Positions 13,257 to 31,116 of a stretch of DNA of 31,116 nucleotides are shown here, in pieces. Positions within the stretch are counted from its first letter, which is position 1, and each line of letters opens with the position of its first letter. Origin of the DNA: a virus. Lineage: Duplodnaviria; Heunggongvirae; Uroviricota; Caudoviricetes. Location of the stretch: the IMG/VR virus record IMGVR_UViG_2690316344_000014. One strand, written 5' to 3'. Both the position numbers and the translations under genes were made by a program. The notes below the pieces were generated by a model. That model was not told the DNA's origin, did not search any database, and saw only the letters and a list, made by a program, of their open reading frames with translations.

Positions 13257-13966
13257 TGGATTTGCCCCTATATTTCCAGACACCTGTTATCACTTAACCC
13301 ATTACTGGCTTGCTGCCGTAGATATTCCCGTGGCGAGCGATAACCCAGTGCACTATGCGGATGCCATTCGTTATAATGCTCGAACGCCTCTGCAAGGTTC
13401 TTTGCTGCCGTTAACCCGTCTGGTTTGGGCATGACACTGATGTAGTCACGCTTTATCGTTTTCACGAAGCTCTCTGCTATGCCGTTACTCTCCGGACTCC
13501 GCACCGCCGTGCTCTTCGGTTCAAGCCCCAACATCCGGGCAAACTGCCGTGTTTCATTAGCCCGGTAGCATGAACCATTATCCGTCAGCCACTCTACTGG
13601 AGACGCCGGAAGCTCGTTGCCGAAGCGGCGTTCCACCGCTCCCAGCATGACGTCCTGTACTGTTTCACTGTTGAAGCCGCCCGTAGTGACCGCCCAGTGC
13701 AGTGCCTCACGGTCACAGCAGTCCAGCGCGAACGTGACTCGCAGTTTTTCTCCGTTATCACAGCGGAACTCGAACCCGTCAGAGCACCATCGCTGATTAC
13801 TTTCTTTCACAGCCACTCTGCCTGTATGTGCCCGTTTCGATGGCGGTACAGCAGGTTTTCGCTCAAGCAACAGCGCATTCTGGCGCATGATCCGGTAAAC
13901 ACGTTTGGCATTGATCGCAGGCATACCATCAAGTTCTGCCTGTCTGCGAAGCAGCGCCCATACCCG
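13257..13966 (-). mobile_element. IS2 partial copy (right end and 3' part of insD only, ~710 bp of ~1.3 kb)
   Basis: Reverse complement of 13257-13300 is the IS2 terminal sequence (...GGGTTAAGTGATAACAGGTGTCTGGAAATATAGGGGCAAATCCA). The InsD C-terminal 218 aa is intact. Similarity to IS2 stops after ...CGCCCATACCCG at 13966, where the lambda gam 3' end begins. Confidence 0.85.
13268..13924 (-). CDS. insD: IS2 transposase InsD, C-terminal fragment (IS3 family OrfB)
   Basis: [53 protein letters not shown] ... [24 protein letters not shown]. The N-terminal third of InsD and all of insC are absent. Confidence 0.85.
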
Positions 13967-16818: not shown

Positions 16819-17140
16819 GGCCTGTCAGTTTCTCAAGATATCCAGACCTACCGCTACCAACTGGATACGAACAGGCCGCCTACAGGCAACACGCAAAGAC
16901 CCCACTAAACTAAAATCTCCTTACCTCACAACACGACAAGCCTGCATTGCGGCGCTTCAGTCTCCGCTGCATACTGTCCAGGTGAGCGCGGGTGATGGCA
17001 TAACAGAGGAAAGAAAATGTCACTCTTCCGCAGAGGTGAAATATGGTACGCCAGTTTCACATTGCCGAACGGTAAAAGATTTAAACAGTCTCTTGGAACA
17101 AAGGACAAAAGGCAGGCGACAGAACTCCATGACAAGCTAA
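16790..17140 (+). CDS. xis: excisionase (Xis), HTH DNA-binding
   Basis: Internal start with a good SD (GAGGTAACC-ATG): [37 protein letters not shown]. Immediately upstream of int, but overlaps it by ~120 nt, so the true 3' end is uncertain and the gene may be frameshifted. Confidence 0.55.
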
Positions 17141-18180
17141 AGGCTGAAGCATGGCGGGTCAGCAAACTTGGTGAAATACCTGATATAACGTTCGAGGAAG
17201 CGTGTGTCAGGTGGCTTGAAGAGAAAGCACATAAAAAATCACTGGACGATGACAAAAGCCGGATCGGATTCTGGCTTCAACATTTCGCAGGAATGCAACT
17301 AAGAGACATTACTGAATCAAAAATTTATTCAGCAATGCAGAAAATGACGAACCGGCGTAATGAGGAAAACTGGAAACTCAGGGCAGAAGCATGCAGAAAA
17401 AAAGGGAAACCTGTTCCAGAATACAAGCCAAAACCAGCGTCTGTTGCAACGAAGGCTACGCATCTTTCATTTATAAAAGCCCTACTAAGAGCCGCAGAGC
17501 GTGAATGGAAAATGCTGGATAAGGCACCAATTATTAAAGTGCCTCAACCAAAGAATAAACGGATCCGCTGGCTGGAGCCCCATGAAGCACAAAGGCTGAT
17601 TGATGAATGTCCGGAGCCATTAAAGTCTGTTGTTGAATTTGCACTGGCAACAGGCTTAAGACGCTCGAACATCATCAACCTTGAATGGCAACAAATAGAT
17701 ATGCAGCGCCGGGTGGCATGGATAAACCCGGAAGAGAGTAAATCAAACCGCGCAATCGGCGTTGCGCTGAATGATACTGCATGTCGCGTATTGAAAAAAC
17801 AAATCGGGAATCATCACCGTTGGGTATTTGTGTACAAGGAAAGCTGTACCAAACCAGACGGAACGAAAGCGCCAACAGTAAGGAAGATGCGGTATGACGC
17901 AAACACAGCCTGGAAAGCGGCGCTGAGACGGGCTGGTATTGATGATTTCAGATTTCACGACTTGAGACACACCTGGGCAAGTTGGCTGGTTCAAGCCGGA
18001 GTCCCGTTGTCAGTGTTACAGGAAATGGGAGGCTGGGAGTCTATCGAAATGGTTCGTCGATATGCTCACCTTGCACCTAATCACCTTACCGAACACGCAC
18101 GGCAAATAGACTCGATCCTGAACCCATCGGTCCCAAATTTGTCCCAGTCAAAAAATAAGGAAGGTACTAATGATGTGTAA
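17017..18180 (+). CDS. int: prophage tyrosine integrase (DLP12 IntD-like)
   Basis: 387 aa with a C-terminal catalytic region ([42 protein letters not shown], i.e. HxxR ... Y). Ends 15 nt before the tRNA-Thr fragment and is convergent with it. Confidence 0.9.
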
Positions 18181-18194
18181 CTTATTGATTTAAA

Positions 18195-18243
18195 TGGTGC
18201 CGATAATAGGAGTCGAACCTACGACCTTCGCATTACGAATGCG
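18195..18243 (-). other. att core: 3' 49 nt of a tRNA-Thr(CGU) gene (thrW-like), not a complete tRNA
   Basis: Reverse complement is CGCATTCGTAATGCGAAGGTCGTAGGTTCGACTCCTATTATCGGCACCA: anticodon stem-loop (anticodon CGT), T-arm and CCA end. Sequence 5' of the anticodon stem does not continue as D-arm or acceptor stem. Confidence 0.8.
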
Positions 18244-18331
18244 TAAATTGATCTTGTAAAATCAATACCTATCGAATTTAAATGGATTTTTTGCCACAAT
18301 ATTGCCACAGTTCGTTAGGAATCAGACAGAA

Positions 18332-19405
18332 ATGGCGACTATACGCAAACGTGGTAACTACCAATGGGAAGCTCAAATCCGTAAACGTGGTTTTCCCTCT
18401 CAAACCAAAACCTTTAACACCAAAGTAGAAGCAGAAGCTTGGGCCAAAATGATCGAGTCAGAAATGGCGAGAGGAGTTTGGCTTAGCCGCAGCGAAGCGG
18501 AATCTACGACATTGTATGAAGCCCTAACGCGATATGAAAAAGAGATTGTTCCCGACAAAAAAGGGGCAGTGCAAGACCGATCATTGGTGCGGATACTAAA
18601 AGGCACTCAGCTGGCGAAAAACTATATGGCCAGCATCAGGAGTGCCGATGTCGCCAAGCTGAGAGATGAATGGTTGAAAATCTATGCTCCTGCAACCGTT
18701 TTAAGGCGTTTGGCCTTACTTTCTCATGTATTCAATGTTTCGCGGAAAGAATGGGGCATGGAGAGCCTGCTGAACCCCGTAGAGGCCATTCGCAAACCCC
18801 AACCCAAGAACTCCAGGACCAGACGCCTAGAAGCGCTGCCTGTAGTTTCTGAGAAAACCGGTGTTACGTCAGGAAAGCAAATAGCCAACGAGATCGAACA
18901 TATCATCGCCGCAACACATTCATTAGTATTGCCAGCAATCATTCTTCTGGCGTTAGAGACAGCCATGCGCCGTAGCGAAATCGCAGAGCTTCGATGGCGC
19001 TTTATCGATCTTGATCGGCGAGTTGCACATCTGCCGGATACTAAGAATGGTAATGCCCGCGATGTCCCTTTATCAACGAAAGCCATTACGATACTGTCCA
19101 GTCTCAAGGAACATTCTAAGCCAGCTGCTGATAAGGTTTTTGATATGCGTGCAGACGCGATTACCCGAGCTTTTGACCGAGCTGTAAAACGAGCCAGAGA
19201 ACGATACGAGAAAACAAACTCATTATGTGATGAATCTTTCCTTAAAGATTTAAGATTTCATGACCTTCGACATGAAGCAACTTCTCGACTTGCTGAAATT
19301 TTCCCTATGCATGAACTAACCAAAATTACAGGACATAAAGATCCAAGAATGCTAATGCGGTATTATCATCCAAAAGCTGAAGATTTGGCGTTAAAGTTGA
19401 AATAA
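18332..19405 (+). CDS. second tyrosine site-specific integrase/recombinase
   Basis: MATIRKRGNYQWEAQIRKRGF... with C-terminal catalytic residues (RRSE, LRFHDLRHEATSRL, MLMRYYH). The ORF can start at 18302. Lies just across the att fragment from the prophage int. Confidence 0.85.
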   Translation: MATIRKRGNYQWEAQIRKRGFPSQTKTFNTKVEAEAWAKMIESEMARGVWLSRSEAESTTLYEALTRYEKEIVPDKKGAVQDRSLVRILKGTQLAKNYMASIRSADVAKLRDEWLKIYAPATVLRRLALLSHVFNVSRKEWGMESLLNPVEAIRKPQPKNSRTRRLEALPVVSEKTGVTSGKQIANEIEHIIAATHSLVLPAIILLALETAMRRSEIAELRWRFIDLDRRVAHLPDTKNGNARDVPLSTKAITILSSLKEHSKPAADKVFDMRADAITRAFDRAVKRARERYEKTNSLCDESFLKDLRFHDLRHEATSRLAEIFPMHELTKITGHKDPRMLMRYYHPKAEDLALKLK

Positions 19406-19414
19406 GGACGTTGT

Positions 19415-20305
19415 ATGGATTATAAAAATAAGTTAGTTGATGCATCACCAAAATTAAACAACCCTCAACTATTGGCTATAATATACTTAATACCTTTTGG
19501 ATACTTGATTGTAGAAAACCCATTATGGCTAGAAAATATATACATTGCCGCTCCAATTTTCCTATCATCTATAGCTTTATTAACCAGTGTATACATAGGA
19601 TATCGTGATTTATTAAATAAAGTATTTAATAATGCAGTAGTTAAATGGGGCGTAACTGGCTTTACATATTCCGTATGCTTATGGATCGCAAAGTTTAAGC
19701 TTGACATAGCTTATGGTATAGTCCCAGAAAACCTTAATTACTCGACATTAGCTTATGCTTTCATGCTCTCATTTCCAATAGGGGCAATGATTTGTGCAAT
19801 TACAGTCTATATATACATATTTTTGCGAGATGTATCCCCAGCAAAAATAGTAATATCCTCTATGATTTCAGTATATATTGGAAGCTTGGCTCAACATCAT
19901 ATACAGGTGAACAATCTTCCTGAAAAAATAATATTAATAGGACTTATAATTATGGTCCCCTATAACATGGTCAATTTAGCTAGTTCATTAGTTATTAAAA
20001 GGAAATTTAATTTTAATCGTTTAGTATCAGGCTTATCCCTTTTTGCTGTGTCAGTTGCTCTTTTTATTATTAGCATGACAGCAATGAAATACATTGAAAG
20101 ATTTCAAGAAAAGTTTATTTTTCTCGATGCAAGAACATCTACGACATGTGGTAGCTCAGAAAGCAAATCTCTTTATATTGAAAAAAATGAAAATCAGTGT
20201 TATAAAATATCAGGAAATAAATTCTCGGAGTTAAGACTAACTCTTGTAGATAAAAACATCTTGAATATAAATAATAAAGGCACTTCAACTTATGAACAAA
20301 AATAA
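19415..20305 (+). CDS. hypothetical polytopic inner-membrane protein
   Basis: 296 aa, AT-rich codon usage, multiple long hydrophobic segments (LLAIIYLIPFGYLIV, AAPIFLSSIALLTSVYIGY, LIGLIIMVPYNMVNLASSLVI, LSLFAVSVALFIISM). No family recognised. Confidence 0.6.
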   Translation: MDYKNKLVDASPKLNNPQLLAIIYLIPFGYLIVENPLWLENIYIAAPIFLSSIALLTSVYIGYRDLLNKVFNNAVVKWGVTGFTYSVCLWIAKFKLDIAYGIVPENLNYSTLAYAFMLSFPIGAMICAITVYIYIFLRDVSPAKIVISSMISVYIGSLAQHHIQVNNLPEKIILIGLIIMVPYNMVNLASSLVIKRKFNFNRLVSGLSLFAVSVALFIISMTAMKYIERFQEKFIFLDARTSTTCGSSESKSLYIEKNENQCYKISGNKFSELRLTLVDKNILNINNKGTSTYEQK

Positions 20306-20519
20306 CCCTGCTAATTCATTTTCTATAGAAGCAAGGAAAGAAGCTTTTCGGAGAGCTGAAGCCAGTCTTTTTTATCAAGTAAAGATCCCAAAGGCTCCTC
20401 ATTTTTTAATGAAATAAAAACTAAGGTAATCAATGGAGAGCTAACCTATGAAGAGGCAAAGAGAGAAGTATTAAATTATCACATTGAACAATCTAAAAAT
20501 CAAAATAAAAAAGGCTAAC
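20292..20519 (+). pseudogene. small ORF split by a frameshift at a T6 run (41-aa 5' part plus 3' part in another frame)
   Basis: MNKNNPANSFSIEARKEAFRRAEASLFYQVKIPKAPHFLMK-stop. Adding one T at the T6 run (20405-20410) restores a 75-aa ORF ending ...NGELTYEEAKREVLNYHIEQSKNQNKKG. Function unknown. Confidence 0.3.
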
Positions 20520-20539
20520 ATTTAGTTAGCCTCTTCTCA

Positions 20540-20752
20540 CTAGTGAGCTATTTTATAGTCCCTTAATGCATTTTTAAGTAACTCCGTTTGCTCATCAGCA
20601 TCATCATAATTATAAATTCCCGTAGCAGAATAATACTCTTCGATGCATAGAATATTTATCAATGGTTCACAAATCTCTTTAATAAACTCCTTGTTGTTAT
20701 CGGCAAAAATAATTTTTATTCCTTCCAAAACAAAGCTATTATAATCAGCCAT
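20540..20752 (-). CDS. hypothetical small acidic protein
   Basis: 70-aa ORF 70 nt downstream of trbL on the same strand. No recognisable family. Confidence 0.4.
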   Translation of the reverse strand: MADYNSFVLEGIKIIFADNNKEFIKEICEPLINILCIEEYYSATGIYNYDDADEQTELLKNALRDYKIAH

Positions 20753-20782
20753 TATCCACCTCCTTACAGGTGTTTAGTGGAA

Positions 20783-20814
20783 GCGTCAGTTAACGTTACC
20801 GCGCTAACTGACGC
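20783..20814. repeat. hairpin: 10-bp inverted repeat with 12-nt loop between trbL and the 70-aa ORF
   Basis: GCGTCAGTTA (20783-20792) and TAACTGACGC (20805-20814). No flanking U-run. Confidence 0.3.
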
Positions 20815-20821
20815 GCCTAAA

Positions 20822-22225
20822 TCAAGATTTTTTACTGCCAGTTAAACTATCACCCTCAAACTCATCCTGTTCGTGGTTAGTCTGACGATCGGCTGTGTGT
20901 TTACGTATTTGATTCGCTATTTCCCCACCAACGGTCTGTTGTCTTCGGATAGTATTAGTACTTCCCTTCATCATCTGATACTCCGAAGCTCCGTTAGACA
21001 ACCCGCTCGCCATGTGAGAAGCCATGCGGCCAGCTCGTGAGAATGATGAAGCAAACCCCTGGCTTCCTCCGCTGACGCTACCTGTATTACTCCCTGCAGA
21101 AGAACCACCGGAACCGCCTGATGGTTGTCCTCCAGAAGTATCTACGGAACCGGTATCTTCCCCTCCGCCAAATCCTCCACCTGAACCACCTTTATCACCA
21201 GAACCAGATTCTTCGGCCATCGCCGCTTGTGCAGATTCAAATGCTGCTTTTAGAGCGGAAGCACCACCACTGACTTGAGCTGTAGCACTTATTGCCATTG
21301 CCCCAGCGCCACTGATTGCAGTAGTAGCAGCGCCAGTAATCATACCTGCTCCAAAACCACCGATCCCTTGTAAGGACGCTCCTCCAACAACGCCTGATAA
21401 CAACAACGGTAATTTATTCGTCAATACTAAAAGAATAATTGACGCCAGAAGTAAAACAATAAGACTATTAAGATCAGGAATATCATTTTTAATAATAGAA
21501 AAATACTGATCTATAAATGATTGCCCAATCCCAATGATTAATGTCATCGTAAATAACTGAATACCAATCGATAATACTGTGCGTAAGTAATTTATTGCTA
21601 TATCAGAAGTCCATTTCGAGCCACCAAACCCAAGCAAAATAACTCCTGCATAACACAACACCCATGCAGAAACTAACATTATTAGCATATTTATCGCGAT
21701 AAGCGCCATTACTACTAATACTATTATCGCGACGGTTATCATAATGGTCGAAATCATTGGAGACCAAATTGATGCTGCTGAACTGACCTTTGTTAATATC
21801 ACAAATGCCATATCCACTATGCTGGAGGGTGAAATACCAGTACTTGTTCCTAAAGCATTTGCTGCAAGTTGTCTCATTGAGTTAATTATAGATTGTGATA
21901 TGGCTGGGCCGTTGATTAAAAGATAATAAAAAAAACCAATCACGGCAAAAAAACGAACTATTTCTGCAAGTGCACTGATTAAACCTTCCCCTTGCATCGC
22001 CAACATACCAAATGTCCAAACCATACTTATTAATACCACCCCCCAGAAGAGCCAATTTGCATAATCACCAATTACTAATGACCATGTGCTGGCTACTTGC
22101 TGAAACTTATCTAATAACGTATCAAGTAATCCGCTACTATCTAATTGACCAGCATAAGCATTTACAGAAAACAAAAAAAACATTCCTAAAAAAGTGAGCT
22201 TGCTTACTATTCTCATAATTACCAT
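20822..22225 (-). CDS. trbL: P-type conjugative transfer protein TrbL/VirB6
   Basis: 467 aa. N-terminal signal plus multiple transmembrane helices, then a C-terminal Gly/Ser-rich low-complexity tail (GGSGGGFGGGEDTGSVDTSGGQPSGGSGGSSAGS), typical of TrbL. Confidence 0.8.
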   Translation of the reverse strand: MVIMRIVSKLTFLGMFFLFSVNAYAGQLDSSGLLDTLLDKFQQVASTWSLVIGDYANWLFWGVVLISMVWTFGMLAMQGEGLISALAEIVRFFAVIGFFYYLLINGPAISQSIINSMRQLAANALGTSTGISPSSIVDMAFVILTKVSSAASIWSPMISTIMITVAIIVLVVMALIAINMLIMLVSAWVLCYAGVILLGFGGSKWTSDIAINYLRTVLSIGIQLFTMTLIIGIGQSFIDQYFSIIKNDIPDLNSLIVLLLASIILLVLTNKLPLLLSGVVGGASLQGIGGFGAGMITGAATTAISGAGAMAISATAQVSGGASALKAAFESAQAAMAEESGSGDKGGSGGGFGGGEDTGSVDTSGGQPSGGSGGSSAGSNTGSVSGGSQGFASSFSRAGRMASHMASGLSNGASEYQMMKGSTNTIRRQQTVGGEIANQIRKHTADRQTNHEQDEFEGDSLTGSKKS

Positions 22226-22392
22226 TCTCGCTTAGGGCTAGGATTGTTATTGCCACGCAGGGCACATTTATCGTAGTTATGTTCGTTCAATTTATTCTCT
22301 GGCGTCGATAAACAATCTTCATCTTTTTTATCGCAAGAGCATAGAATTAATGAAATTATTAGAATAAAAATGACCAAAAGTTTATCTTTCAT
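22219..22392 (-). CDS. small putative lipoprotein in the TrbK (entry-exclusion) position
   Basis: Found by hand (57 aa, below the ORF-track cut-off): MKDKLLVIFILIISLILCSCDKKDEDCLSTPENKLNEHNYDKCALRGNNNPSPKREW. Hydrophobic N-terminus followed by Cys; sits between trbJ and trbL as trbK does in IncP plasmids. Confidence 0.45.
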   Translation of the reverse strand: MKDKLLVIFILIISLILCSCDKKDEDCLSTPENKLNEHNYDKCALRGNNNPSPKREW

Positions 22393-22403
22393 TCAGCTCT
22401 CCC

Positions 22404-23198
22404 TCACCAAATTCGCTTCGGGCTTGGTGTGTTCTCGCCAGCTAACGCTTTTTCATCAGCGACTATTTGTTGGGCTTCTTTATCAGCCTCAGCCTGTGCC
22501 AGTGTTGCTGCAGCGTTTTGCTGAGCTACCAGAAGCGAGCGGATTTGCAGCAACTGGTTCGTTTGAGCACTGGCAAGCTGGTTAGCGGCCTGAATAGCTT
22601 CCATTTGCCCTTGTGCGCCGGTTGCCTGCGTTTGTAAATCTGCAAGGTTGTCAGCATCGCTTTGCAGTGTTTCCTGCTGTTCGTCAAGAGCCTTAAATAC
22701 AGCGTCATTGGCCTTTTTACGTGCCTCAGAGCTGTTCTGTTCAGCTTTGCGCAGTGCGCTAATTTCATCCGCAGTACATTCAACATTACTGTTAAAGCAC
22801 GGTGATGAGCGGTAGTAATTCACGTCCTGATAACGTTTCAGATATGAATCAAGACTCCCGGCCTGGTTTTTGTAGTAATTTAGGGTGTCCTGCGCCTGCA
22901 ACAATTTGTTGATGGTCGAATTGGCCTGATCCCAGATATAGGCTGCAGGTGCGACTGTATTTTTGAGCATGTTTTCATACTGCTGCAGCTGCGTCTGGTA
23001 CTGCTGGATCTGTTTTGCCACAGCCTGAACGTTGTTGACTGCGCTGATTGTGGTCTGCACCACATTAGTACCATCGATTACAGGGATACCGGCTGTCGCC
23101 GGTAATGCCATGATGGACGCCAGGAAGGAAGCAGCTAATGATTTTTTAGCTGCTAAAATCCCTCTCAGTGATGAAAATACTCGGAGCATTAACTTCAT
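22404..23198 (-). CDS. trbJ: P-type conjugative transfer protein TrbJ (VirB5-like)
   Basis: 264 aa, signal peptide then a coiled-coil-rich Q/A-rich sequence (QIQQYQTQLQQYENMLKN ...). The trbJ-trbK-trbL order is conserved. Confidence 0.75.
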   Translation of the reverse strand: MKLMLRVFSSLRGILAAKKSLAASFLASIMALPATAGIPVIDGTNVVQTTISAVNNVQAVAKQIQQYQTQLQQYENMLKNTVAPAAYIWDQANSTINKLLQAQDTLNYYKNQAGSLDSYLKRYQDVNYYRSSPCFNSNVECTADEISALRKAEQNSSEARKKANDAVFKALDEQQETLQSDADNLADLQTQATGAQGQMEAIQAANQLASAQTNQLLQIRSLLVAQQNAAATLAQAEADKEAQQIVADEKALAGENTPSPKRIW

Positions 23199-23279
23199 TT
23201 GCCCACCTCAAATTTAACTGATTATTAATATTGAAAACTCGTACTTTTAACAAATACAGATATTTAGGAAACCATAAAT

Positions 23280-23645
23280 TTATTTATTCAAGATTCTATC
23301 CATAATATTTCTTAGTTCTTGTCTGGTTGATTCTATTTTAGCAAGCAACGTTTTTATCAATGAGGGTGAAAAATCAACTGTGCGTGGATCGTTAGCTAAC
23401 CACAGTTTAAGTAACCCACCAAGTCGACCAAGATCAGCATTTACTCGGCTAAGCTCTACAACCTGTTCAATATCTACCATAGACTCAACCTGATAACCCA
23501 TTGCTACTTTACGAATGAAACTCGCTACACTTAAGCCAGATGCTTCTGCATTATCCTGGATTTGCGCTTTTTCATCTGGCAAACAATAAACTTTAATTGG
23601 TGTACTATTTTTTCTAGTCTGAGAAACGGTCATATCATTCTCCAT
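23280..23645 (-). CDS. traJ: relaxosome accessory oriT-binding protein, TraJ/MobC family
   Basis: 121 aa with PIKVYCLPDE and DLGRLGGLLKLWL motifs resembling RP4 TraJ / the MobC family. Sits immediately beside an RP4-like oriT. Confidence 0.75.
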   Translation of the reverse strand: MENDMTVSQTRKNSTPIKVYCLPDEKAQIQDNAEASGLSVASFIRKVAMGYQVESMVDIEQVVELSRVNADLGRLGGLLKLWLANDPRTVDFSPSLIKTLLAKIESTRQELRNIMDRILNK

Positions 23646-23660
23646 ACAGGCGGTAGCCGA

Positions 23661-23765
23661 TCAGCCTCGCAGAGCAGGACTCCGTTGAGCAGCTCAGCTG
23701 CGAATAAGGGAAGGTAAAGTAGAAGCACCGTTTACGGTGGGCCTACTTTACATATCCTGCCCTAC
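23661..23765 (+). other. origin of transfer (oriT), IncP/RP4 type, with TraJ-binding inverted repeat and nic site
   Basis: CAGCCTCGCAGAGCAGGACTCCGTTGAGCAG ... GCGAATAAGGGAAGGTAAAGTAGAAGCACCGTTTACGGTGGGCCTACTTTACATATCCTGCCC closely parallels the RP4 oriT as I recall it from mob vectors. Inverted repeat GTAAAGTAG (23714-23722) / CTACTTTAC (23743-23751), then the ATCCTG/C nick consensus at 23754-23760. Confidence 0.8.
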
Positions 23766-23915
23766 ATTTGCCGTTGTGAATCTGTGTACGTATTGTGTAT
23801 TCCTGTGTACTCAGTGTGTTTTCCTAAAGCATTTGTGCAGGATTAGTAGTGTAAAAATGTGCAGCATATGTGTTTATTGGAATGGAAATTATTTGAATGA
23901 CCCTAAGAGATATTT

Positions 23916-24197
23916 TTATTCTCGCGGCTTGGGTTTTGGCGGCCTGCCACGTTTCCTTTGACATCTATTTATCTCTTTCGCTATATCGTCATTTTCTGTC
24001 TTTGACTCAACAGATTTATCTATCCAGTCCTTAACATCTTCTTTACGCCAGAGAAGACGTTTATTACCGGGAAGACGGCATCTTGGTGGAAGACATTTTG
24101 GATTTCGCGTTGCATCACTGCGGATACTTTTTACAGTTTTCTTTAATGCAAAAGCCAACTCTTCAACGGTTATAAGTTCTGGCATAACTGATTTCAT
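23916..24197 (-). CDS. alpA: AlpA-family DNA-binding protein (excisionase/transcriptional regulator-like)
   Basis: MKSVMPELITVEELAFALKKTVKSIRSDATRNPKCLPPRCRLPGNKRLLWRKEDVKDWI, the AlpA/MerR-like winged-HTH pattern, with a basic C-terminal tail. The ORF can start at 24209. Confidence 0.7.
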   Translation of the reverse strand: MKSVMPELITVEELAFALKKTVKSIRSDATRNPKCLPPRCRLPGNKRLLWRKEDVKDWIDKSVESKTENDDIAKEINRCQRKRGRPPKPKPRE

Positions 24198-24231
24198 CGA
24201 AGAACCCATCTCTCAGTAGAAATTTGAGGAT

Positions 24232-24259
24232 TTTAGCGGCTAAAATTTTAGCCGCTAAA
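24232..24259. promoter_or_regulatory. 28-bp perfect palindrome immediately upstream of alpA
   Basis: TTTAGCGGCTAAAA-TTTTAGCCGCTAAA, 23 nt upstream of the longest alpA start. Candidate operator. Confidence 0.45.
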
Positions 24260-24509
24260 GTTTGCTAACCAACGTTATGAATTGAGAATAATTAAAACTT
24301 ACTGGCAAAAAGAATAATGTCAACAGGGTTTTTATTCATCGGATTCTTACTCCATATGAAATTGGTTTTATTGACCGATTTCTGAATGACACTAAGGTTT
24401 TAATAATTCCTTTAATCTTTTTGGTTATATAAAAGGTTAAAGATCAGGTTAGAGAGGTGTGGAAAAGCGATATATTCACTTGTTTACTATGACAATTTTA
24501 AATTATATC

Positions 24510-24572
24510 CGTACCTCAAATGTCATGAAAGCGTACCTCATATGTCATAAAGGCGTACCTCATATGTCATAT
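24510..24572 (+). repeat. three tandem ~22-bp direct repeats (iteron-like)
   Basis: CGTACCTCAAATGTCATGAAAG, CGTACCTCATATGTCATAAAGG, CGTACCTCATATGTCATAT, head to tail. Confidence 0.7.
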
Positions 24573-24615
24573 AATAAAAAATAAGCAAACAAGTTATACA
24601 CAATATTATTAACAG

Positions 24616-24865
24616 AATCTGTGGATAAATACACAGATTATACATGATAAAATAGATTGTTTAGCTAAACTAAATAACAATAAATAAAATGAAACAAAAT
24701 GTAAATAACAGGGGGGGGGGTGTAAGTGACTTATAAATTTGGTTAGCTAACCTTTATAAGAAACACTGTTTGTAAATGATTCATTTCTGACAACGGATAT
24801 ATCGAATTTGAGTAAGAAAAACACTTCAACTAACCTTACTCTCTGATTTGTTTAGCTAAACAAAT
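24616..24865. promoter_or_regulatory. cluster of palindromes upstream of the higA-like gene, three sharing a TTAGCTAA core
   Basis: AATCTGTG-n8-CACAGATT (24616-24639); GTTTAGCTAAAC (24659-24670); CTTATAAA-ttt-GGTTAGCTAACC-TTTATAAG (24730-24760); ATTTGTTTAGCTAAACAAAT (24846-24865, 20 bp perfect). Confidence 0.5.
24711..24720. repeat. G10 homopolymer tract
   Basis: Ten consecutive G in an otherwise AT-rich intergenic region. Confidence 0.9.
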
Positions 24866-24889
24866 TACTGTAAGGAATCCGATGACGTT

Positions 24890-24904
24890 AAAAAAAAGGG
24901 GGGG
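24890..24904 (+). repeat. A8G7 homopolymer tract overlapping the ribosome-binding site of the higA-like gene
   Basis: AAAAAAAAGGGGGGG ends 2 nt before the ATG at 24907. Confidence 0.9.
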
Positions 24905-24906
24905 AT

Positions 24907-25164
24907 ATGAGGACAATAAATGCTGCACCTTCAACTGTCGGAGAGATTTTATACGAAGAATTCTTGAAACCATTGGATATGCCTCCCGCAAGACTTGCTG
25001 AACTGATGGATACATCATATGAAAAAATTTGGGAAATAATTAAAAATGAGCGAAATATAACTCTTGAAGAAGCTATTCAACTCTCGATAATTTTCAATAC
25101 AGATGCATCTTTTTGGGTGAAACTGCAAGAGCTACATGAGGCATGGTTTAATAAACAAAAGTAA
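24907..25164 (+). CDS. HigA-like XRE-family HTH protein (antitoxin-like / transcriptional regulator), apparently orphan
   Basis: 85 aa, MRTINAAPSTVGEILYEEFLKPLDMPPARLAELMDTSYEKIWEIIKNERNITLEEAIQLSIIFNTDASFWVKLQ, the HigA/VapI-type pattern. No HigB/RelE-like ORF found on either side. Confidence 0.7.
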   Translation: MRTINAAPSTVGEILYEEFLKPLDMPPARLAELMDTSYEKIWEIIKNERNITLEEAIQLSIIFNTDASFWVKLQELHEAWFNKQK

Positions 25165-25364
25165 GGTTATTCAATTAGATTACTTAGTCCTAATACATAA
25201 TTTGCTTTGAATAATACTCATACATTTCTAACGACTTATTAAAGCGATAATATACTCGGACGACTGAGGATTAAAAAATCCGATCCTTGATGATGGGAAC
25301 CTGCCATGACTAGGTAAGTCATTTTAGCAGTGGTACAGGCGACATTAAAAGCCGATATAAAGAA

Positions 25365-25397
25365 GCCCGACTGGTAAGATCGGGCCTTTTTATTTTT
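25365..25397 (+). terminator. rho-independent terminator
   Basis: GCCCGA-ctggtaaga-TCGGGC followed by CTTTTTATTTTT. Confidence 0.5.
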
Positions 25398-25782
25398 CCA
25401 CTCTGGCCTGAATGGAACATCCTACATTAGACGTTAAGATCTTACATCTAATTATCCGAAAATACTAATGGATGCGTAGTTGCATTTGACCTGACCGCCC
25501 ATTTGCGGGTTACTCTACCATCGCCAATAAAGTCCGGCTACTCGAATTCGGAAGTATTAGGCTATAGGTCATAAACCTGAATAACTGCTATGTGCTGAAG
25601 CGGATAAAGCTGACATCATTATGCACCAATCAACTCGGTGTAAGTCAGCTAGTTGGTGATGGAGTGACTTGTCAATAGTTGTAGCCCCTACCAGTGCATC
25701 GGAGATTCTTGAGTGTAACCTTAGTTGCTTTAATCAGAAGTAAAGGAAACGTACTATGAAAATCAGTACTCTTAATCAAGAG

Positions 25783-25812
25783 ATCCCCCGTTCTCTCACG
25801 GAAAAGGGGGAT
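25783..25812. terminator. hairpin just 3' of the 420-aa gene
   Basis: ATCCCCC-n16-GGGGGAT beside the stop at 25820; T-rich sequence follows on the plus strand. Confidence 0.3.
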
Positions 25813-25819
25813 TGAATTT

Positions 25820-27082
25820 TCAAATTTTCTTTTTAGCGATAAAAATACAGTAAAAATATAAGGTTTTGATAATGTGATTAATGCTGTGCACCTCGCGAAA
25901 TAATAGTAATAGCTTCCTCATAAAAGACATGAAACTAAGTTCGTTGTATTTAGTGCGTTCCATTCCTTCCTTAGCGAAATAGTAGGTTATCATCTGAATT
26001 GACTCTTTATATTCATATTTATAATGTGCAATGCCATTTCGCAGCTTGTTGTCTAAAGCATTGAGATCAACTATATAAAAGCTATCATCCAATCCGCTTA
26101 TTTTCGTGCCTAAATCAACGTTTGCATATTCGTTGAGACTAGAAAAACCTTTAATTAAATCGCCTTTTTTATTTAGTCTTACTGAATCGTCAAAAATATT
26201 ATGATCTCCGCGTTTTAATAAGTTATTCAATCCGGCCACAATTATTAATTGCCGAGAGAATACTTCAGATAAGTCTTTGTAAAAATTGTTACAGTCATCA
26301 AATTCGGCAGTTGAAACTCGAGCAGGAATCATTGATAAATCTACGTTTTTATCATAATCATAGTAAAGCGCTGGGCGTGAAGGGAGTTCAAAGTCAAGCA
26401 TTTTGGGATATAGGCTTAAACAATCGAAATGCAAACTTTTCAGAAACCCACTTCCAATAATATCATCTAAAAATTTATTTAGCTGTTTTGGATGATTTTT
26501 CTGAATATAATGAAGAAATTGTGGCATTTTTTCACTAATTTCAGCATTATGTGCATGTATTGTAAAGGGAAATGACATTGCAGAGGTTGCTGTATAAAGT
26601 GCGGAAAGGATATCTTGTATTTTTAGCGAACGAGGTTTTTTCAGAGTAGGTAATTCTTTCATTAGGTTACTGAAAGTATTGTAATTTCCTTGTTTGTATT
26701 GAGTAATGAGTCGCTGGAGCTTATCGCGATGTTTATAAATATAATTCATTCCATTTAGATGTGCGTTCAGCATTAAGTATTTTTCATGACCTATTGCACT
26801 TGTTATTTTTAAGAATGCTGTTTTTCCTATTTCGTATTTTCCAAAGCCTACGGGAAAATCTAAATGCAAATCGATGAATGGATTTGTTGTGCCAAAGTCA
26901 TTGCTTTCTACAGTTTCCGCACCGTTAAATACAGGCTCTCCCTCCCCAAGAGTAAACGATATATTATTCTCACAATTTGGACATGCAAATTGGAACGGTT
27001 GTATGTCTCGATTAGACATACCTATTCTTGTATCAATGACCGTGTCACATACAAGGCATTTAAATTGCTGTAAAAAATTCAT
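25820..27082 (-). CDS. hypothetical protein with N-terminal zinc-ribbon (CxxC ... CxxC), 420 aa
   Basis: MNFLQQFKCLVCDTVIDTRIGMSNRDIQPFQFACPNCEN: Cys9/Cys12 and Cys34/Cys37. AT-rich; no family recognised by eye. Confidence 0.6.
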   Translation of the reverse strand: MNFLQQFKCLVCDTVIDTRIGMSNRDIQPFQFACPNCENNISFTLGEGEPVFNGAETVESNDFGTTNPFIDLHLDFPVGFGKYEIGKTAFLKITSAIGHEKYLMLNAHLNGMNYIYKHRDKLQRLITQYKQGNYNTFSNLMKELPTLKKPRSLKIQDILSALYTATSAMSFPFTIHAHNAEISEKMPQFLHYIQKNHPKQLNKFLDDIIGSGFLKSLHFDCLSLYPKMLDFELPSRPALYYDYDKNVDLSMIPARVSTAEFDDCNNFYKDLSEVFSRQLIIVAGLNNLLKRGDHNIFDDSVRLNKKGDLIKGFSSLNEYANVDLGTKISGLDDSFYIVDLNALDNKLRNGIAHYKYEYKESIQMITYYFAKEGMERTKYNELSFMSFMRKLLLLFREVHSINHIIKTLYFYCIFIAKKKI

Positions 27083-27329
27083 AAATATTTTATTAATCCT
27101 ATAAATTATAAGTTAAGTATTAGTCTTTTATCTACAAACCAAAGCCACTTTACTACTTTACCTAACTGCACTTTAAACAATCATAAGTTCTTTTTTTTTA
27201 AAAAGGTAGTCCAAAGATACCAATTTATTCAATATCAACGAGAATTCGAGACTCCTATGTGAGTAAAAAACTATGAGCTTCATGCCATGCTTTCAATAAA
27301 TGTCTTCAGTTACCCATAAATTTACTGGA

Positions 27330-27857
27330 TTAACAATTTGTAGTCTTTCCGACCAAATTACCGCGCGCAGTGTGACCCCATACTTTAGATGTCACCTTAT
27401 CTCTTTCCACTAGTTGTTTACGGTGCATCAAATCGGCAAGCAGTATTGAAACAAAGAACATGAATTTTGTTTTGGGAGTATTAGGAACATCTTTGGGTCC
27501 AAGCCAAGGTAGCTGCTCCAGTTGATTTTGTATTTTGGGTGTTGCGAAGCTAACACCATTCCAACTATGCCCAAAAGCATTTCTAATGCTACGCAGTGTG
27601 TTTAGTTCTTTGTATTCGTGTTCCATTATCAGTCCTAACGCATATGCTAAGCCTGTTCTAGCAGCAAAAGATGATAAAGGCGCTGTTGCACCATTCAGTA
27701 GACCTTTAGCTACTTTGTCATTTAACAGGTGAGCCTGGATGATCTCGGATAACCACTCATCGAAAATGGATGCTGCTATTAGAACAGAGCCACGATCTGA
27801 TTCTTTATTTAGTTCGGACAAAAATTGACCGAGTTCAATTTGGGTTTTATCACTCAC
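27330..27857 (-). CDS. HEPN/MtlR-like protein with Rx4H motif (candidate RNase-type toxin or abortive-infection protein)
   Basis: 175 aa. The N-terminus (GSVLIAASIFDEWLSEIIQAHLL) resembles the MtlR/HEPN helical fold; RNAFGH (R92-x4-H97, nt 27567-27584) fits the HEPN Rx4-6H motif. Confidence 0.5.
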   Translation of the reverse strand: MSDKTQIELGQFLSELNKESDRGSVLIAASIFDEWLSEIIQAHLLNDKVAKGLLNGATAPLSSFAARTGLAYALGLIMEHEYKELNTLRSIRNAFGHSWNGVSFATPKIQNQLEQLPWLGPKDVPNTPKTKFMFFVSILLADLMHRKQLVERDKVTSKVWGHTARGNLVGKTTNC

Positions 27858-28371
27858 AGACTCTGGAACTCCTTTCTCAAAAATTCAACATGAGGACGCT
27901 TCGGTCGCACATCAATCTTAACCATTAGATTATGAAATTGTGTTAGGTCTGGGTCAAACTATGAACAAAAACAGAAAAAATTATTGTGACGTTATTTAGG
28001 GGGACCTACAATGACACATTTTAAACAATTACTTTAATATCAATAAATTGGATCGTATTACTGTGTTCCTATTATTGGTTTAGCTCAGCTTGTCGCTCAC
28101 AGCGGACCTTCAGCTCGATAGCAAGTCCGCTCCGTTGGAGTGCCAGATGCGCTCTAAATTTGATGGCTAGTATTGAAGAGATACTTGGGCATCATGGTTA
28201 TGGTGTAAATACCGTCTGTGATACCCGCAGAGGTGCTAGGTTTAGGCACTGAGAAGGATACATTGAACATGAATTCAGAGTGATGTAACACAAGTCATAG
28301 AAAATTAGTGATTTATATTGAAAAGGGGGCTATTTTATTAAAGCAAGGCCGCCTTTAGGCAGCCTCTTATT

Positions 28372-29049
28372 TTACATGTAGATATTCATTAAACTGTCAA
28401 ATAGTCTTTTGGTTAACTCTTTTTCCGCTCGTGCTTCGATTTGAGCCATACCATTTCGGAAGAGTTTTAATTTACCGCTAAATTCTTGGTCATGAATAGT
28501 ACATGTCAATCGATCAAGTCTCATTTTTTTGTGAATAAGCTCATCTTTGAAATATTTTTTAAGATCGCTGGTACTATTAATTTGCATCTTGGCAAGAGCA
28601 AATTCAGCAACTTGAATTTGAGATACATCTAGTTGCACTATATTAAGTGTCAACTCTGTGTTTAAAGAACTGAACCATATGAACGGGTCAATCTCAATCT
28701 CTTCTAAGCTGGTACCAAGACCAAGGTTTTTTACCAGTGCCTGAGCAAATGGTTTAAGTGTTCTCGGTGGATTATCAATAAGTAAAACTGGGGTGTATTG
28801 TTCGTCAAAACTGAAAGATGTTACTCTATATTCAATGCGTTCAACAGCGGTACTGTTGCCGTATAGATTACTTATTCTATCTTCGCTAATTATCTTTTCG
28901 ATGAAGCGAGCGTGAAAATGAGATGTTCGTGATTTATCAAATATAAACCCTTTCCCTTTCTCTTCAGTAAAAGGATCACGCATGAGTTTTTCAACTGTTT
29001 CACTAGTAGTGAAACGATTGTTGAGTTTAATCCATTTAAATTTTTTCAT
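28372..29049 (-). CDS. hypothetical protein, gene C of a coupled three-gene operon
   Basis: 225-aa ORF whose start overlaps the last 14 nt of the upstream gene. AT-rich; no recognisable motif. Confidence 0.6.
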   Translation of the reverse strand: MKKFKWIKLNNRFTTSETVEKLMRDPFTEEKGKGFIFDKSRTSHFHARFIEKIISEDRISNLYGNSTAVERIEYRVTSFSFDEQYTPVLLIDNPPRTLKPFAQALVKNLGLGTSLEEIEIDPFIWFSSLNTELTLNIVQLDVSQIQVAEFALAKMQINSTSDLKKYFKDELIHKKMRLDRLTCTIHDQEFSGKLKLFRNGMAQIEARAEKELTKRLFDSLMNIYM

Positions 29050-30115
29050 GCTCTTCCACCTTTTTACCCGTCACGATATTATAGGCGTCTGCTGCTGACT
29101 GTTCAATTAGTAGGCTGATTTTCTTCTTTTCAACTTCATTTGCTGCACGAATAGTAACATTGTATCCACTACCTTTTTGGTTATTGATTCCTTTAATTTG
29201 ATAGGAAAAATCAGAGCAATTTTCTGAATCCTTAAAGAAAGCTTCAACCAAAATCCTGTCTCCTATTCCGTTTTTAGGTTTAGCAGACCAAGCAATTCTT
29301 CCAATATAGTATCCTTTGTTATGTAGTTGGGTGAAAATAGCAGAACTATTAACAGAATCACCTTTTAGAACCGCTTTTTTTACGAATCCTGTCTCGATTT
29401 CTTCTTCTTCCTCGTCATCACCTTTGCTTGTTGAACGGTTAAGCTCTACATTAGTAACGTCGTCAATTTCATATCCACTCAAGCCGCCCATAACCTCTTG
29501 AAAAAACTGACTTCTTAGCGCTGGTGTAGGAATCGCTTCTAAAGAAATTTCAAACTTTTCAACATCAACGGATTTAATCTTTGACAACTCTTTTTGTAAT
29601 AGTGTTATTACATCTTTAGCCTTTTGGTTCTGAGGCATACGAATATCAACATTATCGTTATTTACAGTAAGATCAATCTTGATGTTTCGGTTGTCTATCT
29701 GACGCAATGCTGTTCTGGACAAGTCTACTTCTTGGTAGTTTACCTCGATTGCTAAAGACCCATCTTTTTTCGCAGTGATTTTTACTGTTTCACCAGAGCC
29801 AGTGGCTAATTTTCTTTTAACTAACTCTGCTGCTGTTTTTAATTCCGTCTGAGAGGATGATGCTTGAAGCTTGACGCTAGTTATACTCTCTCTTTTATCA
29901 TAAGTTTGTACAAGTTCCTTAATAGAATCTAGATCACTATATCCCTGAGGTAGTTTGCAAACCTCTTCAATTAATTCCTCCTTTGTTAAGTCTTGAGCAA
30001 CAATAATACCTTTCCGTAATAATATCTCGCGTAATCTTGCGATGGTAATTCGTTTATGATGAAGTGCATCATATATATTTTTGTCAGTTGCGAAATAAAT
30101 ATTCATGTTATTCAT
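29036..30115 (-). CDS. hypothetical protein, gene B of a coupled three-gene operon
   Basis: 359 aa with an acidic stretch (GDDEEEEEIE). Its ATG overlaps the upstream stop by 1 nt (TAATG). No family recognised. Confidence 0.6.
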   Translation of the reverse strand: MNNMNIYFATDKNIYDALHHKRITIARLREILLRKGIIVAQDLTKEELIEEVCKLPQGYSDLDSIKELVQTYDKRESITSVKLQASSSQTELKTAAELVKRKLATGSGETVKITAKKDGSLAIEVNYQEVDLSRTALRQIDNRNIKIDLTVNNDNVDIRMPQNQKAKDVITLLQKELSKIKSVDVEKFEISLEAIPTPALRSQFFQEVMGGLSGYEIDDVTNVELNRSTSKGDDEEEEEIETGFVKKAVLKGDSVNSSAIFTQLHNKGYYIGRIAWSAKPKNGIGDRILVEAFFKDSENCSDFSYQIKGINNQKGSGYNVTIRAANEVEKKKISLLIEQSAADAYNIVTGKKVEEHEKI

Positions 30116-31116
30116 TAACGTTGCTCCATGCCTATAGCTTCAAGACTATATTGAATTACCATTGCAGCTGTTTTTTCGAATGCAACTTTTGAAAACAAAC
30201 GTTCACTTTCGCCTGATAGCCAATGGGCACTATATTTTTGCTTTGCTCTTTCAAAGTGATGAATGGAGTCTTCATGCGGATTTATATGACAATGTCTAAT
30301 TTTTATTCTTTTTGCATCAGTCAGTATTTGATAATTAGAAAGCATGTCAAGGAAATAGATGAACTCATCTTCACTATTCCCTGGTTGATTATAATAAATT
30401 ACGTAACCACTATCTTCTTTTTCACCCATCCAATCGAATTCTTCATGCTTTATTATTATGAATGGTGATGTTAAGACCTCAACAGTAGCTGCAGTCTTAT
30501 TGTTGATAGGATGTTTTATCCTAGTTAGTGCTAAGTCTGGGTAATAGAAATAGTACAAATCTGGTTGAGGTAAAGCCCCGGTACCAATAAGCATTTTAAT
30601 ATCTGATGCTATATTTATCATATCGGATATTTTGAATGGATCTAAAAGGTGTAATTTTATGTTTGGGGGGCATTTTATTATTTCAGGGTCGACTTTCTTC
30701 ATCACGGATGAGTAAAAATCCTTGTCATAAAGGTTGTCATGATTATAGAGAAATAATAAACCTCGAACTTTGTAACCTAATGACTCATCCCGCACATATC
30801 GTTTACACCACTGTTGGCTAATGTTGGCGCATTCTGTAGCGAGAGCTAAAGAAGAAAGTGCACCTTCTACCATCCCTTTGCCGATACTACTTTGAGCATA
30901 GCTTTTGAGGTCTGTGTTCAAGTACACAATCTCTTCTTCATAAGGATCGGTATAGTAAAACACCACATCGCTAGGATGTGTTTTTTTGTCATGAGCCTCT
31001 AGGTCGCAATCCCAGTTCATATCTTGACTAGTAGCTCGTTGCCATTTGAAAATTTTAAAAATATCTTGGGTTATCTTATTTGCAACATGCTGTATTGAAG
31101 AGGTCTCTCCGCCCAT
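30115..31116 (-). CDS. hypothetical protein, gene A of a coupled three-gene operon; possible PD-(D/E)xK nuclease-like motif; start at or beyond the window edge
   Basis: At least 333 aa. The ORF reaches the last base of the window, where an ATG lies. A hydrophobic strand ending in Asp (DVVFYYTD57) is followed by EIVYLNTD69-L-K71, a pattern like restriction-endonuclease-fold motifs II/III. Confidence 0.55.
   Translation of the reverse strand: MGGETSSIQHVANKITQDIFKIFKWQRATSQDMNWDCDLEAHDKKTHPSDVVFYYTDPYEEEIVYLNTDLKSYAQSSIGKGMVEGALSSLALATECANISQQWCKRYVRDESLGYKVRGLLFLYNHDNLYDKDFYSSVMKKVDPEIIKCPPNIKLHLLDPFKISDMINIASDIKMLIGTGALPQPDLYYFYYPDLALTRIKHPINNKTAATVEVLTSPFIIIKHEEFDWMGEKEDSGYVIYYNQPGNSEDEFIYFLDMLSNYQILTDAKRIKIRHCHINPHEDSIHHFERAKQKYSAHWLSGESERLFSKVAFEKTAAMVIQYSLEAIGMEQR

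Follow-up and report, generated by a model that had tools for sequence, protein, structure and literature searches.

Why would a chromosome carry three genes of a conjugative pore and none of the others? The question is raised by the stretch of DNA recorded as IMGVR_UViG_2690316344_000014 (31,116 nucleotides, hereafter the window), which is E. coli chromosome and in which the mating-pair-formation genes trbJ, trbK and trbL of an incompatibility group P (IncP)-like type IV secretion system (T4SS) stand at positions 20822 to 23198. The preliminary description left the choice between a decayed conjugative element and a retained subset of genes, and suggested that the subset could be kept for the exclusion of incoming IncP-like plasmids by the small lipoprotein encoded by the middle gene. 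We propose that trbJ-trbK-trbL serves as the transfer module for an integrative mobilizable element (IME) of 13.6 kb inserted at the thrW tRNA gene, and that this module would confer a private exclusion identity on the pore of a helper plasmid; taken as a whole, with the exclusion proposal included, we consider that this reading stands about an even chance of being correct.

The three genes are indeed contiguous at the coordinates first given for them, all on the minus strand and downstream of traJ. The gene trbL (20822-22216; the open reading frame, ORF, spans 20822-22225 and the equivalent of the RefSeq start is 22216) encodes a VirB6-like protein recognized by Pfam TrbL (E=2e-29, 103 bits vs 25.9) and by NCBIfam TrbL_P TIGR02783 (267 bits for a cut-off of 128.9). 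The VirB5-like product of trbJ (22404-23198) is an NCBIfam TrbJ equivalog (NF010452, 381.8 bits for a cut-off of 286; TIGR02780, 183.6 vs 100.6), the match in Pfam being weak (E=0.004). Between them, and tightly packed with its stop abutting the trbL start, lies a trbK-like gene (22219-22392, minus strand) whose predicted product is a 57-residue inner-membrane lipoprotein. The assignment to TrbK is based on the position of the gene, the lipoprotein signal and the cysteine pattern: the protein has a signal peptide, an invariant Cys20 followed by Asp (D or E among the homologues) that aligns with the lipobox cysteine of plasmid TrbK, two more conserved cysteines and the C-terminal SPxxxW motif, as in the plasmid protein. 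A small ORF between trbJ and trbL, a lipoprotein signal and an Asp at position +2 are thus all present, and the lipoprotein does occupy the position of TrbK, as the preliminary description had perceived. The protein belongs to no curated TrbK family or any other family in Pfam and NCBIfam, where the searches returned only noise (Syndecan, a Treponema lipoprotein), and tblastn against the 72,556 plasmids of PLSDB found this type of TrbK in none of them. Its homologues, with 63-100% identity, are found on chromosomal contigs of Salmonella, Klebsiella, Brenneria and Kosakonia. Sequence searches of solved structures with TrbJ and TrbK gave nothing usable. The upstream relaxosome gene is traJ (23280-23645, minus strand), which encodes an oriT-binding accessory protein (NikA-like, E=6e-23; TraJ equivalog, 162 bits for a cut-off of 134).

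The rest of the transfer apparatus is missing, as had been noted for trbB-trbI. When the window was searched by tblastn with the proteins of R751 and of the IncP-type plasmid pIso00199_02, no match was obtained for TrbB-I, TrbM/N, TraI, TraK or TraG. A full trb operon lying just outside the window would have overturned this picture; the complete island of strain E54, in which the map shows no further trb genes, no relaxase and no coupling protein, ends at thrW and is followed by proA and proB, so that no such operon is present beyond the border. The components of a complete conjugative element (trbB-I, a coupling protein and a relaxase) are therefore found neither in the window nor in the E54 island, and since there are no pore genes besides trbJKL, the island alone would be unable to conjugate.

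The 4-kb block around trbJ-trbK-trbL is found with 99.1-99.9% identity in 14 complete E. coli genomes, and 99 of 5,426 genomes carry at least 80% of it. The island, from 18.2 kb of the window to thrW, is seen whole in strain E54, with which positions 17000-31116 share 99.8% identity; its far end, at thrW (tRNA-Thr), falls about 700 bp outside the window. Two perfect 50-bp direct repeats of the 3' end of thrW lie 13,620 bp apart, the second copy being inside thrW of E54 and the distal attachment (att) repeat at 18194-18243; the 31-mer core of this repeat occurs once in the window. RefSeq labels the distal repeat as a portion of a 112-nucleotide pseudo "tRNA-Ser"; we rejected this label in favour of a partial thrW repeat, and ARAGORN detects no intact tRNA in the window. 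Next to the repeat stands the tyrosine integrase of the island itself (18302-19405, plus strand; RefSeq start at about 18332; Pfam Phage_integrase, E=1.6e-26), whose homologues, with 50-64% identity, occupy the equivalent position, in the orientation opposite to trbJ-trbL, in islands of Burkholderiales and Pseudomonas. The integrase and the perfect flanking repeats together provide the site-specific integration that is expected of an IME.

The second property expected of an IME, an origin of transfer (oriT) related to that of a conjugative helper, is also present. The oriT of the island (23645-23765, plus strand) comprises an inverted repeat at 23707-23758 and the nick motif ATCCTG|C at 23754-23760 on the plus strand, and it is about 93% identical over about 125 bp, nick region and inverted repeat included, to the traJ-proximal oriT of pIso00199_02. 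The island thus combines an IncP-type oriT with its own TraJ, without a relaxase. Furthermore, it carries operators of the IncP regulators KorB and KorA. Two adjacent perfect KorB operators, TTTAGCSGCTAAA, are found at 24232-24259, just upstream of an ORF of 97 codons, and a third copy, which departs from the motif at one position, stands at 23145-23157 within the 5' end of trbJ; the corresponding site of the plasmids is perfect. Two perfect KorA operators, GTTTAGCTAAAC, are located at 24659-24670 and 24850-24861, the second of them 46 bp upstream of higA. The chance expectation is 0.08 occurrences for each of the two motifs. By comparison, R751 has 9 copies of the KorB motif and pIso00199_02 has 14, at the equivalent trbJ position and the expected promoters among others, and the KorA motif is found 2-4 times in these plasmids, in R751 at the korA and trfA promoters beside KorB sites; both operator sequences agree with the published OB and OA (PMC11790492). 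From the presence of copies of the IncP oriT and of these regulator binding sites, we infer that the island probably rides on IncP-type plasmids, and the Kor operators could be the route by which such islands sense the helper.

Is this small set of genes maintained, or is it decaying? We compared this island with related islands of Enterobacter, Shigella, Pseudescherichia, an unclassified Enterobacterales metagenome-assembled genome, Erwinia, Dickeya, Citrobacter and another E. coli. Among them, traJ, trbJ, trbK and trbL are full length, with ratios of nonsynonymous to synonymous divergence (dN/dS) of 0.05-0.45 (trbL 0.13-0.26, trbK 0.14-0.45) for a synonymous divergence (dS) of up to about 1, and the sole damaged gene is traJ, truncated in the Shigella copy. 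When one genome per species was scanned with a TrbJ alignment, 80 loci were found, of which 75 were scored: 17 have a complete trb operon, and in the remaining 58 the set is limited to trbJ, an ORF for a small lipoprotein and trbL, with traJ directly upstream in most of them. The density of KorB sites is 1.46 per 10 kb in these 58 islands and 1.48 in complete plasmids. Purifying selection and recurrence across species both argue that trbJKL is a recurrent, selected module and not wreckage. Of the two possibilities first envisaged it is therefore the retained subset that proves right, and mobilizable islands with such a subset are a known class.

The relation of the module to its presumed helpers is revealed by the comparison with the nearest plasmids, which are enterobacterial, 52-60 kb in size and typed IncP/MOBP/MPF_T, with a full trbB-trbL operon, traI, trfA and the kor genes; 109 of the 111 matching plasmids are typed as conjugative. 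TrbJ is 92% identical to its plasmid homologue, the identity reaching 100% over residues 27-236 and falling to 54% over the last 28 or so. In the case of TrbK the identity is only 22% (E=4e-6), with equal length and the same cysteine pattern; it is 57% for TrbL, with about the same value for its membrane domain, and 64% for TraJ. At the DNA level the alignment is a mosaic with sharp breakpoints: 94% identity in the trbJ core (23158-22467), about 50% through the 3' end of trbJ, trbK and the first ~1 kb of trbL, 83-97% in the segment encoding the Gly/Ser-rich linker of TrbL (21245-21006), and about 40% beyond 21006. The patches of 94% and 83-97% inside sequence of about 50% identity indicate that the island has recently recombined with this family of plasmids, and the dS of the trbJ core, 0.24 against the plasmid, rises to 0.5-0.8 against most other islands. 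The core differs from the plasmid by 29 synonymous and 1 nonsynonymous substitutions (dN/dS 0.008). Judged from these alignments, the island TrbJ is a recombinant, with a body equal to that of the helper and a different tail.

This different tail acquires its meaning when it is compared with TrbK. In every system examined, plasmids and islands alike, the C-terminal ~12 residues of the lipoprotein resemble the tail of the TrbJ encoded just upstream. Thus, in our island, the TrbJ tail ENTPSPKRIW is accompanied by the TrbK tail NNNPSPKREW, and in pIso00199_02 TYTKSPAQSW is accompanied by EFTKSPEKKW; other types associate PKNWLELTR with PKNWLELTDPTR, PPDRSKSKGY with an identical PPDRSKSKGY, and DFLPSSPDRY with EFKPSSPDRY. 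When the TrbJ tails are grouped into 12 types, the cognate TrbK tail is the best-scoring partner in 11 of them (permutation p ~2e-5), with a mean score of 54.8 for cognate and 19.4 for non-cognate pairs. The cognate tail also ranks first in 7 of 7 types and in 15 of 20 when the grouping is coarser or finer; the 7, 12 and 20 types are the informative groupings, a still coarser clustering (3-4 types) leaving too few for a meaningful p-value. A recent gene conversion between the tails of trbJ and trbK was considered and is unlikely, because only 7-8 of 14 codons have the same third base. No tail type of the TrbJKL-only islands recurs in a complete plasmid within this sample; the last seven residues of the island TrbK, PSPKREW, are those of R751 TrbK. 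In the literature that could be searched we found no report of this TrbJ/TrbK matching, which is not proof that there is none.

In the TrbK proteins that have been studied, the C-terminus is essential for exclusion (PMC8923210), and an exclusion-like protein has recently been shown to bind VirB5 in the Xanthomonas T4SS. The family-wide match suggests that TrbK mimics the tail of the VirB5-like TrbJ. From these elements we advance a joint proposal, which we hold tentatively and would not yet back against its alternatives taken together: exclusion by TrbK would consist in the mimicry of the C-terminal tail of the donor TrbJ, and the islands would graft a tail of their own onto a body identical to that of the helper, add a matching TrbK, and be wired to the sliding-clamp silencing exerted by KorA and KorB. 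If so, the TrbJ tail, possibly with the TrbL membrane domain, would be the donor-side specificity determinant of IncP exclusion, long unknown, and a hijacked pore would gain a private exclusion identity.

The model that we propose for the island combines these observations. An incoming IncP-type helper of the pIso00199_02 kind would bring a relaxase, a coupling protein and all that the island lacks of the Trb pore, and the island TraJ would mark the island oriT for the relaxase of the helper. The KorB and KorA proteins of the helper would couple the expression of the island to the helper transfer regulon. The island TrbJ and TrbL would then replace the corresponding subunits, the body of TrbJ, which is that of the helper, allowing it to fit the helper pore; the resulting pore would have a new exclusion identity and would escape the TrbK of the helper, as the TraG of SGI1 does with IncC plasmids. 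The island TrbK, whose tail matches that of the island TrbJ, would in turn block redundant entry from donors of the same island type. The exclusion identity and this blocking of redundant entry are the least certain steps. On the whole, the cassette is likely to give the pore of the helper a new exclusion identity, an idea of pore remodelling that was put forward earlier for two other islands, GIsul2 and the IncP island (PMC5704250).

Several points weigh against this model. For this island, all the evidence comes from sequence. In the study of the Pseudomonadota integrative mobilizable elements (PIMEs), trbJ and trbL were left unmutated and the helper was co-transferred without a drop, and a related E. 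coli element, PIME1EcRHB23-C07, was induced and not mobilised by the IncP-1 plasmids pB10 and pKJK5 (bioRxiv 10.64898/2026.01.12.698999). The pore genes of SGI1 are dispensable for mobilisation itself (PMC5704250). Exclusion can be broad, since the TrbK of pKPC_UVA01 excludes both IncP and IncN plasmids; this breadth, together with the R751-like PSPKREW end, means that a different tail may not change specificity and that the island TrbK might exclude the helper. Having no replicase, the island could not persist once excised, and as KorA and KorB are repressors, their sites alone do not explain an induction by the helper. Finally, a single one of the 300 E. coli genomes with a match (301 records) has matches on two records, which indicates that the island and a helper-type plasmid are rarely seen together; their co-occurrence in E. 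coli is too rare to be tested, about 3 cases being expected by chance.

VirB5- and VirB6-type subunits form the pilus tip and the inner channel stalk in related systems. The alternative that survives best, unlikely as we judge it, starts from the fact that these are exactly the subunits carried by the island: TrbL and TrbJ would bias the pore towards island DNA or change the range of recipients reached by the pilus tip, and TrbK would be an ordinary self-exclusion protein, with no evasion of the helper. The most diverged part is the membrane domain of TrbL, in agreement with such a capture of the channel. This explanation has no direct evidence in its favour, and it accounts neither for the exchange of the TrbJ tail on an identical body nor for the fact that TrbK tails track TrbJ tails.

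Somewhat less probable still is that exclusion is the only function, as a reading of retention by selection against IncP-like plasmids would have it: TrbK would be kept to block such plasmids for the protection of the host or of the island, and trbJ and trbL would merely flank it or serve its expression. The architecture of TrbK and the end that it shares with R751 TrbK fit this explanation, as do the ability of TrbK-type proteins to act alone in recipients, sometimes over a broad range, and the defence genes among the island cargo. That the island lipoprotein excludes IncP plasmids in general is plausible from its sequence, and this part of the earlier suggestion can be retained; exclusion alone, by contrast, leaves the conservation of trbJ, trbL, traJ and oriT unexplained. 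Indeed, purifying selection on trbJ and trbL is at least as strong as that on trbK, oriT and traJ are conserved alongside, and the TrbJ body, which has remained identical through 29 synonymous changes, points to a protein that works inside the plasmid pore. Moreover, shutting out the sole possible helper would block the spread of the island itself.

We regard as improbable a third alternative, in which the island subunits would poison or down-tune the pore or the regulon of the helper, the island being a parasite that limits helper spread. The KorB sites of the island could titrate KorB, and PIME1 lowered the copy amplification of its helper; it did not lower helper transfer, and the identical TrbJ body suggests compatibility over poisoning. 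Last, and bearing on the decay possibility of the preliminary description, it is very improbable that the locus is what is left of an integrated IncP plasmid or conjugative element in decay, with three genes that survive by chance and lie idle: the presence of only 3 of ~11 pore genes, an interrupted vbhA gene in the window and the truncated traJ of the Shigella copy would speak for it, but full-length ORFs under purifying selection across genera and in the trbJ core, perfect att repeats with an intact integrase and oriT, the tight packing of trbK against trbL and the recurrence of the same subset in ~58 loci of different species with different integrases, in an element class already described, speak against it.

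What follows from a transfer module that would remodel the pore of a helper? As first stated, the finding was of modest interest; its value is raised by the mosaic, the tail matching and the Kor operators of the island, which make the donor-side target of TrbK and a helper-sensing route directly testable and turn what was a loose proposal of pore remodelling into one open to experiment. IncP-type plasmids spread resistance genes widely, so that elements which ride on them and alter the recipients of their DNA are of practical interest. Lone chromosomal trbJ-trbK-trbL clusters should accordingly be annotated as the mobilisation module of helper-dependent, defence-carrying islands and not as dead plasmids.

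The other features of the island can be described in their order along the DNA. Among the E. coli copies the conserved core (~18177-25590) comprises the integrase, a membrane protein, vbhA, a small ORF, trbL, trbK, trbJ, traJ, the 97-codon ORF and higA. The membrane protein (19415-20305, plus strand; 296 residues) is recognized as multi-pass from its hydrophobic translation, and searches of Pfam, NCBIfam and PADLOC gave no match for it. The VbhA-family antitoxin gene (20292-20417, plus strand) encodes 41 residues in the window and 75 in E54, where it is intact and its product 40% identical to the VbhA of the IncP-type plasmid; the interruption (20292-20519) is either a frameshift mutation or a sequencing error, and no partner toxin is annotated adjoining the gene. 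On the minus strand follow, within 20507-20752, an ORF of 70 codons (20540-20752) and a terminator-like hairpin (20537-20507) with a 13-pair stem and a T run, which is the probable end of the traJ-trbJKL transcription unit.

On the other side of oriT, the 97-codon ORF (23916-24209, minus strand) encodes an AlpA-like candidate regulator or excision factor. It has 55% identity to an ORF of the Pandoraea island L072 that stands ahead of the RPA replicase there and itself gives a weak HTH_17 match (E=0.017); the ORF of our island has no match in Pfam, and none to AlpA or helix-turn-helix models. Between it and higA stand three iteron-like 22-bp direct repeats, CGTACCTCAWATGTCAT..., at 24510-24575, which, in an island without a replicase, could be the relic of an origin of replication (oriV) or the binding sites of a regulator. 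No ORF of the island, the 420-residue cargo protein included, matches a replication family in Pfam, NCBIfam or PADLOC, whereas the relatives do possess a replicase (RPA, E=2e-92, in L072; AAA_25, RepA-like, in L009). The last gene of the core, higA (24907-25164, plus strand), encodes a HigA-family protein of the XRE type (NCBIfam HigA, 66 bits for a cut-off of 48) that is 51% identical to the plasmid HigA, so that homologues of both VbhA and HigA are common to island and plasmid.

The remainder of the window (25590-31116, minus strand) is variable cargo: the 420-residue protein (25820-27082), for which Pfam, NCBIfam and PADLOC gave no match, a regulator resembling MltR, and three genes that form a candidate defence set, a PD-(D/E)XK nuclease among them. 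The cargo differs in other E. coli copies, which carry for example Shedu, Ite or DUF4365 genes. The operon at 28372-31116 is matched nearly end to end by the PADLOC candidate models Hp3, Hp2 and Hp1 (E=3e-80 to 5e-176), and it is to one of its genes that the PD-(D/E)XK annotation belongs.

At the other end, positions 1 to ~18180 of the window are a lambdoid prophage with genes for terminase, Nu1, Bor, Rz, lysozyme, RecT, the YqaJ exonuclease and an integrase. The latter gene ends at 18180 and abuts the distal thrW repeat, which places the prophage and the island in tandem at a thrW hotspot; strains ES6 and AH50 have the island and lack the prophage. Within the prophage region, a large serine recombinase gene (11231-12757) lies in a stretch of low GC content (34-35% over 11-13 kb) and is adjoined by a truncated rve-type transposase gene (13268-13924, GC ~51%).

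How does the island compare with known systems? The PIMEs form a set of 1,136 elements, some of which are induced and mobilised by IncP-1 plasmids and for which IncP-like oriTs and defence cargo have been noted; exclusion, KorA, KorB and thrW are unmentioned in that preprint (bioRxiv 10.64898/2026.01.12.698999). Our island and the PIMEs both have an IncP-like oriT, defence cargo and nothing of the rest of the T4SS, and the closest of them, the guaA-integrated enterobacterial type exemplified by L009 (guaA, int, RepA-like, traJ, trbJKL), shares with it the traJ-trbJ-trbK-trbL module, with 80-98% protein identity for TraJ, TrbJ and TrbL and 64-94% for TrbK. It differs from them in its insertion site, thrW, in the use of an unrelated integrase and in orientation, which is opposite. 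It also lacks a RepA-type replicase and any recognisable regulator of the AlpA or LuxR type, and its trbJ core has recombined with an IncP-type plasmid. The co-occurrence of int, trbJ and trbL that serves to recognize a PIME is found here and the replicase (repA) is not; in view of this and of the absence of a recognisable AlpA, we treat the island as a PIME-like variant and not as a member under the definition of the preprint. The betaproteobacterial relatives of the L072 type have the integrase and the 97-codon ORF in common with it, and in these relatives an RPA replicase separates the ORF from traJ.

GIsul2 and the IncP island (Burkholderia glumae, Brucella suis), like ours, carry only TrbJ, TrbK and TrbL of the IncP pore, and a review of IMEs in 2017 proposed, by analogy with SGI1, that they reshape the pore of the helper and escape exclusion (PMC5704250). 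GIsul2 has no relaxosome protein and has RepA/RepC, and the IncP island has its own relaxase together with TraJ and TraK (PMC5704250), whereas the element described here has TraJ only and no replicase. SGI1 with its IncC helper provides the functional model, since a few pore subunits (the VirB6-like TraG, TraH and TraN) replace those of the helper and disable its entry exclusion (PMC5704250); it differs in the secretion type and proteins, which are unrelated (MPF-F and not MPF-T), and in having no exclusion gene, whereas the island cassette includes an exclusion-type lipoprotein. The TrbK proteins of the IncP-1 plasmids RP4 and R751 and of pKPC_UVA01 are, like that of the island, small lipoproteins encoded between trbJ and trbL, with an Asp after the lipidated Cys and the SPxxxW motif; the island protein, only 22-26% identical to them and without a curated family model, comes from an element that is not conjugative, and exclusion activity is predicted for it. 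Finally, pIso00199_02 and the pJJ1886-type plasmids of 52-60 kb have in common with the island the oriT, the TrbJ body, the TrbL linker, the KorA and KorB operators and the homologues of VbhA and HigA, and in addition the full trbB-L set, traI, traG, trfA and the kor genes, none of which the island possesses. The island is thus a mobilizable element of the known TrbJKL-bearing kind represented by GIsul2, the IncP island and the PIMEs, to which it adds, as new features, a relaxosome consisting of TraJ only, a life without replicase and an integration site at thrW.

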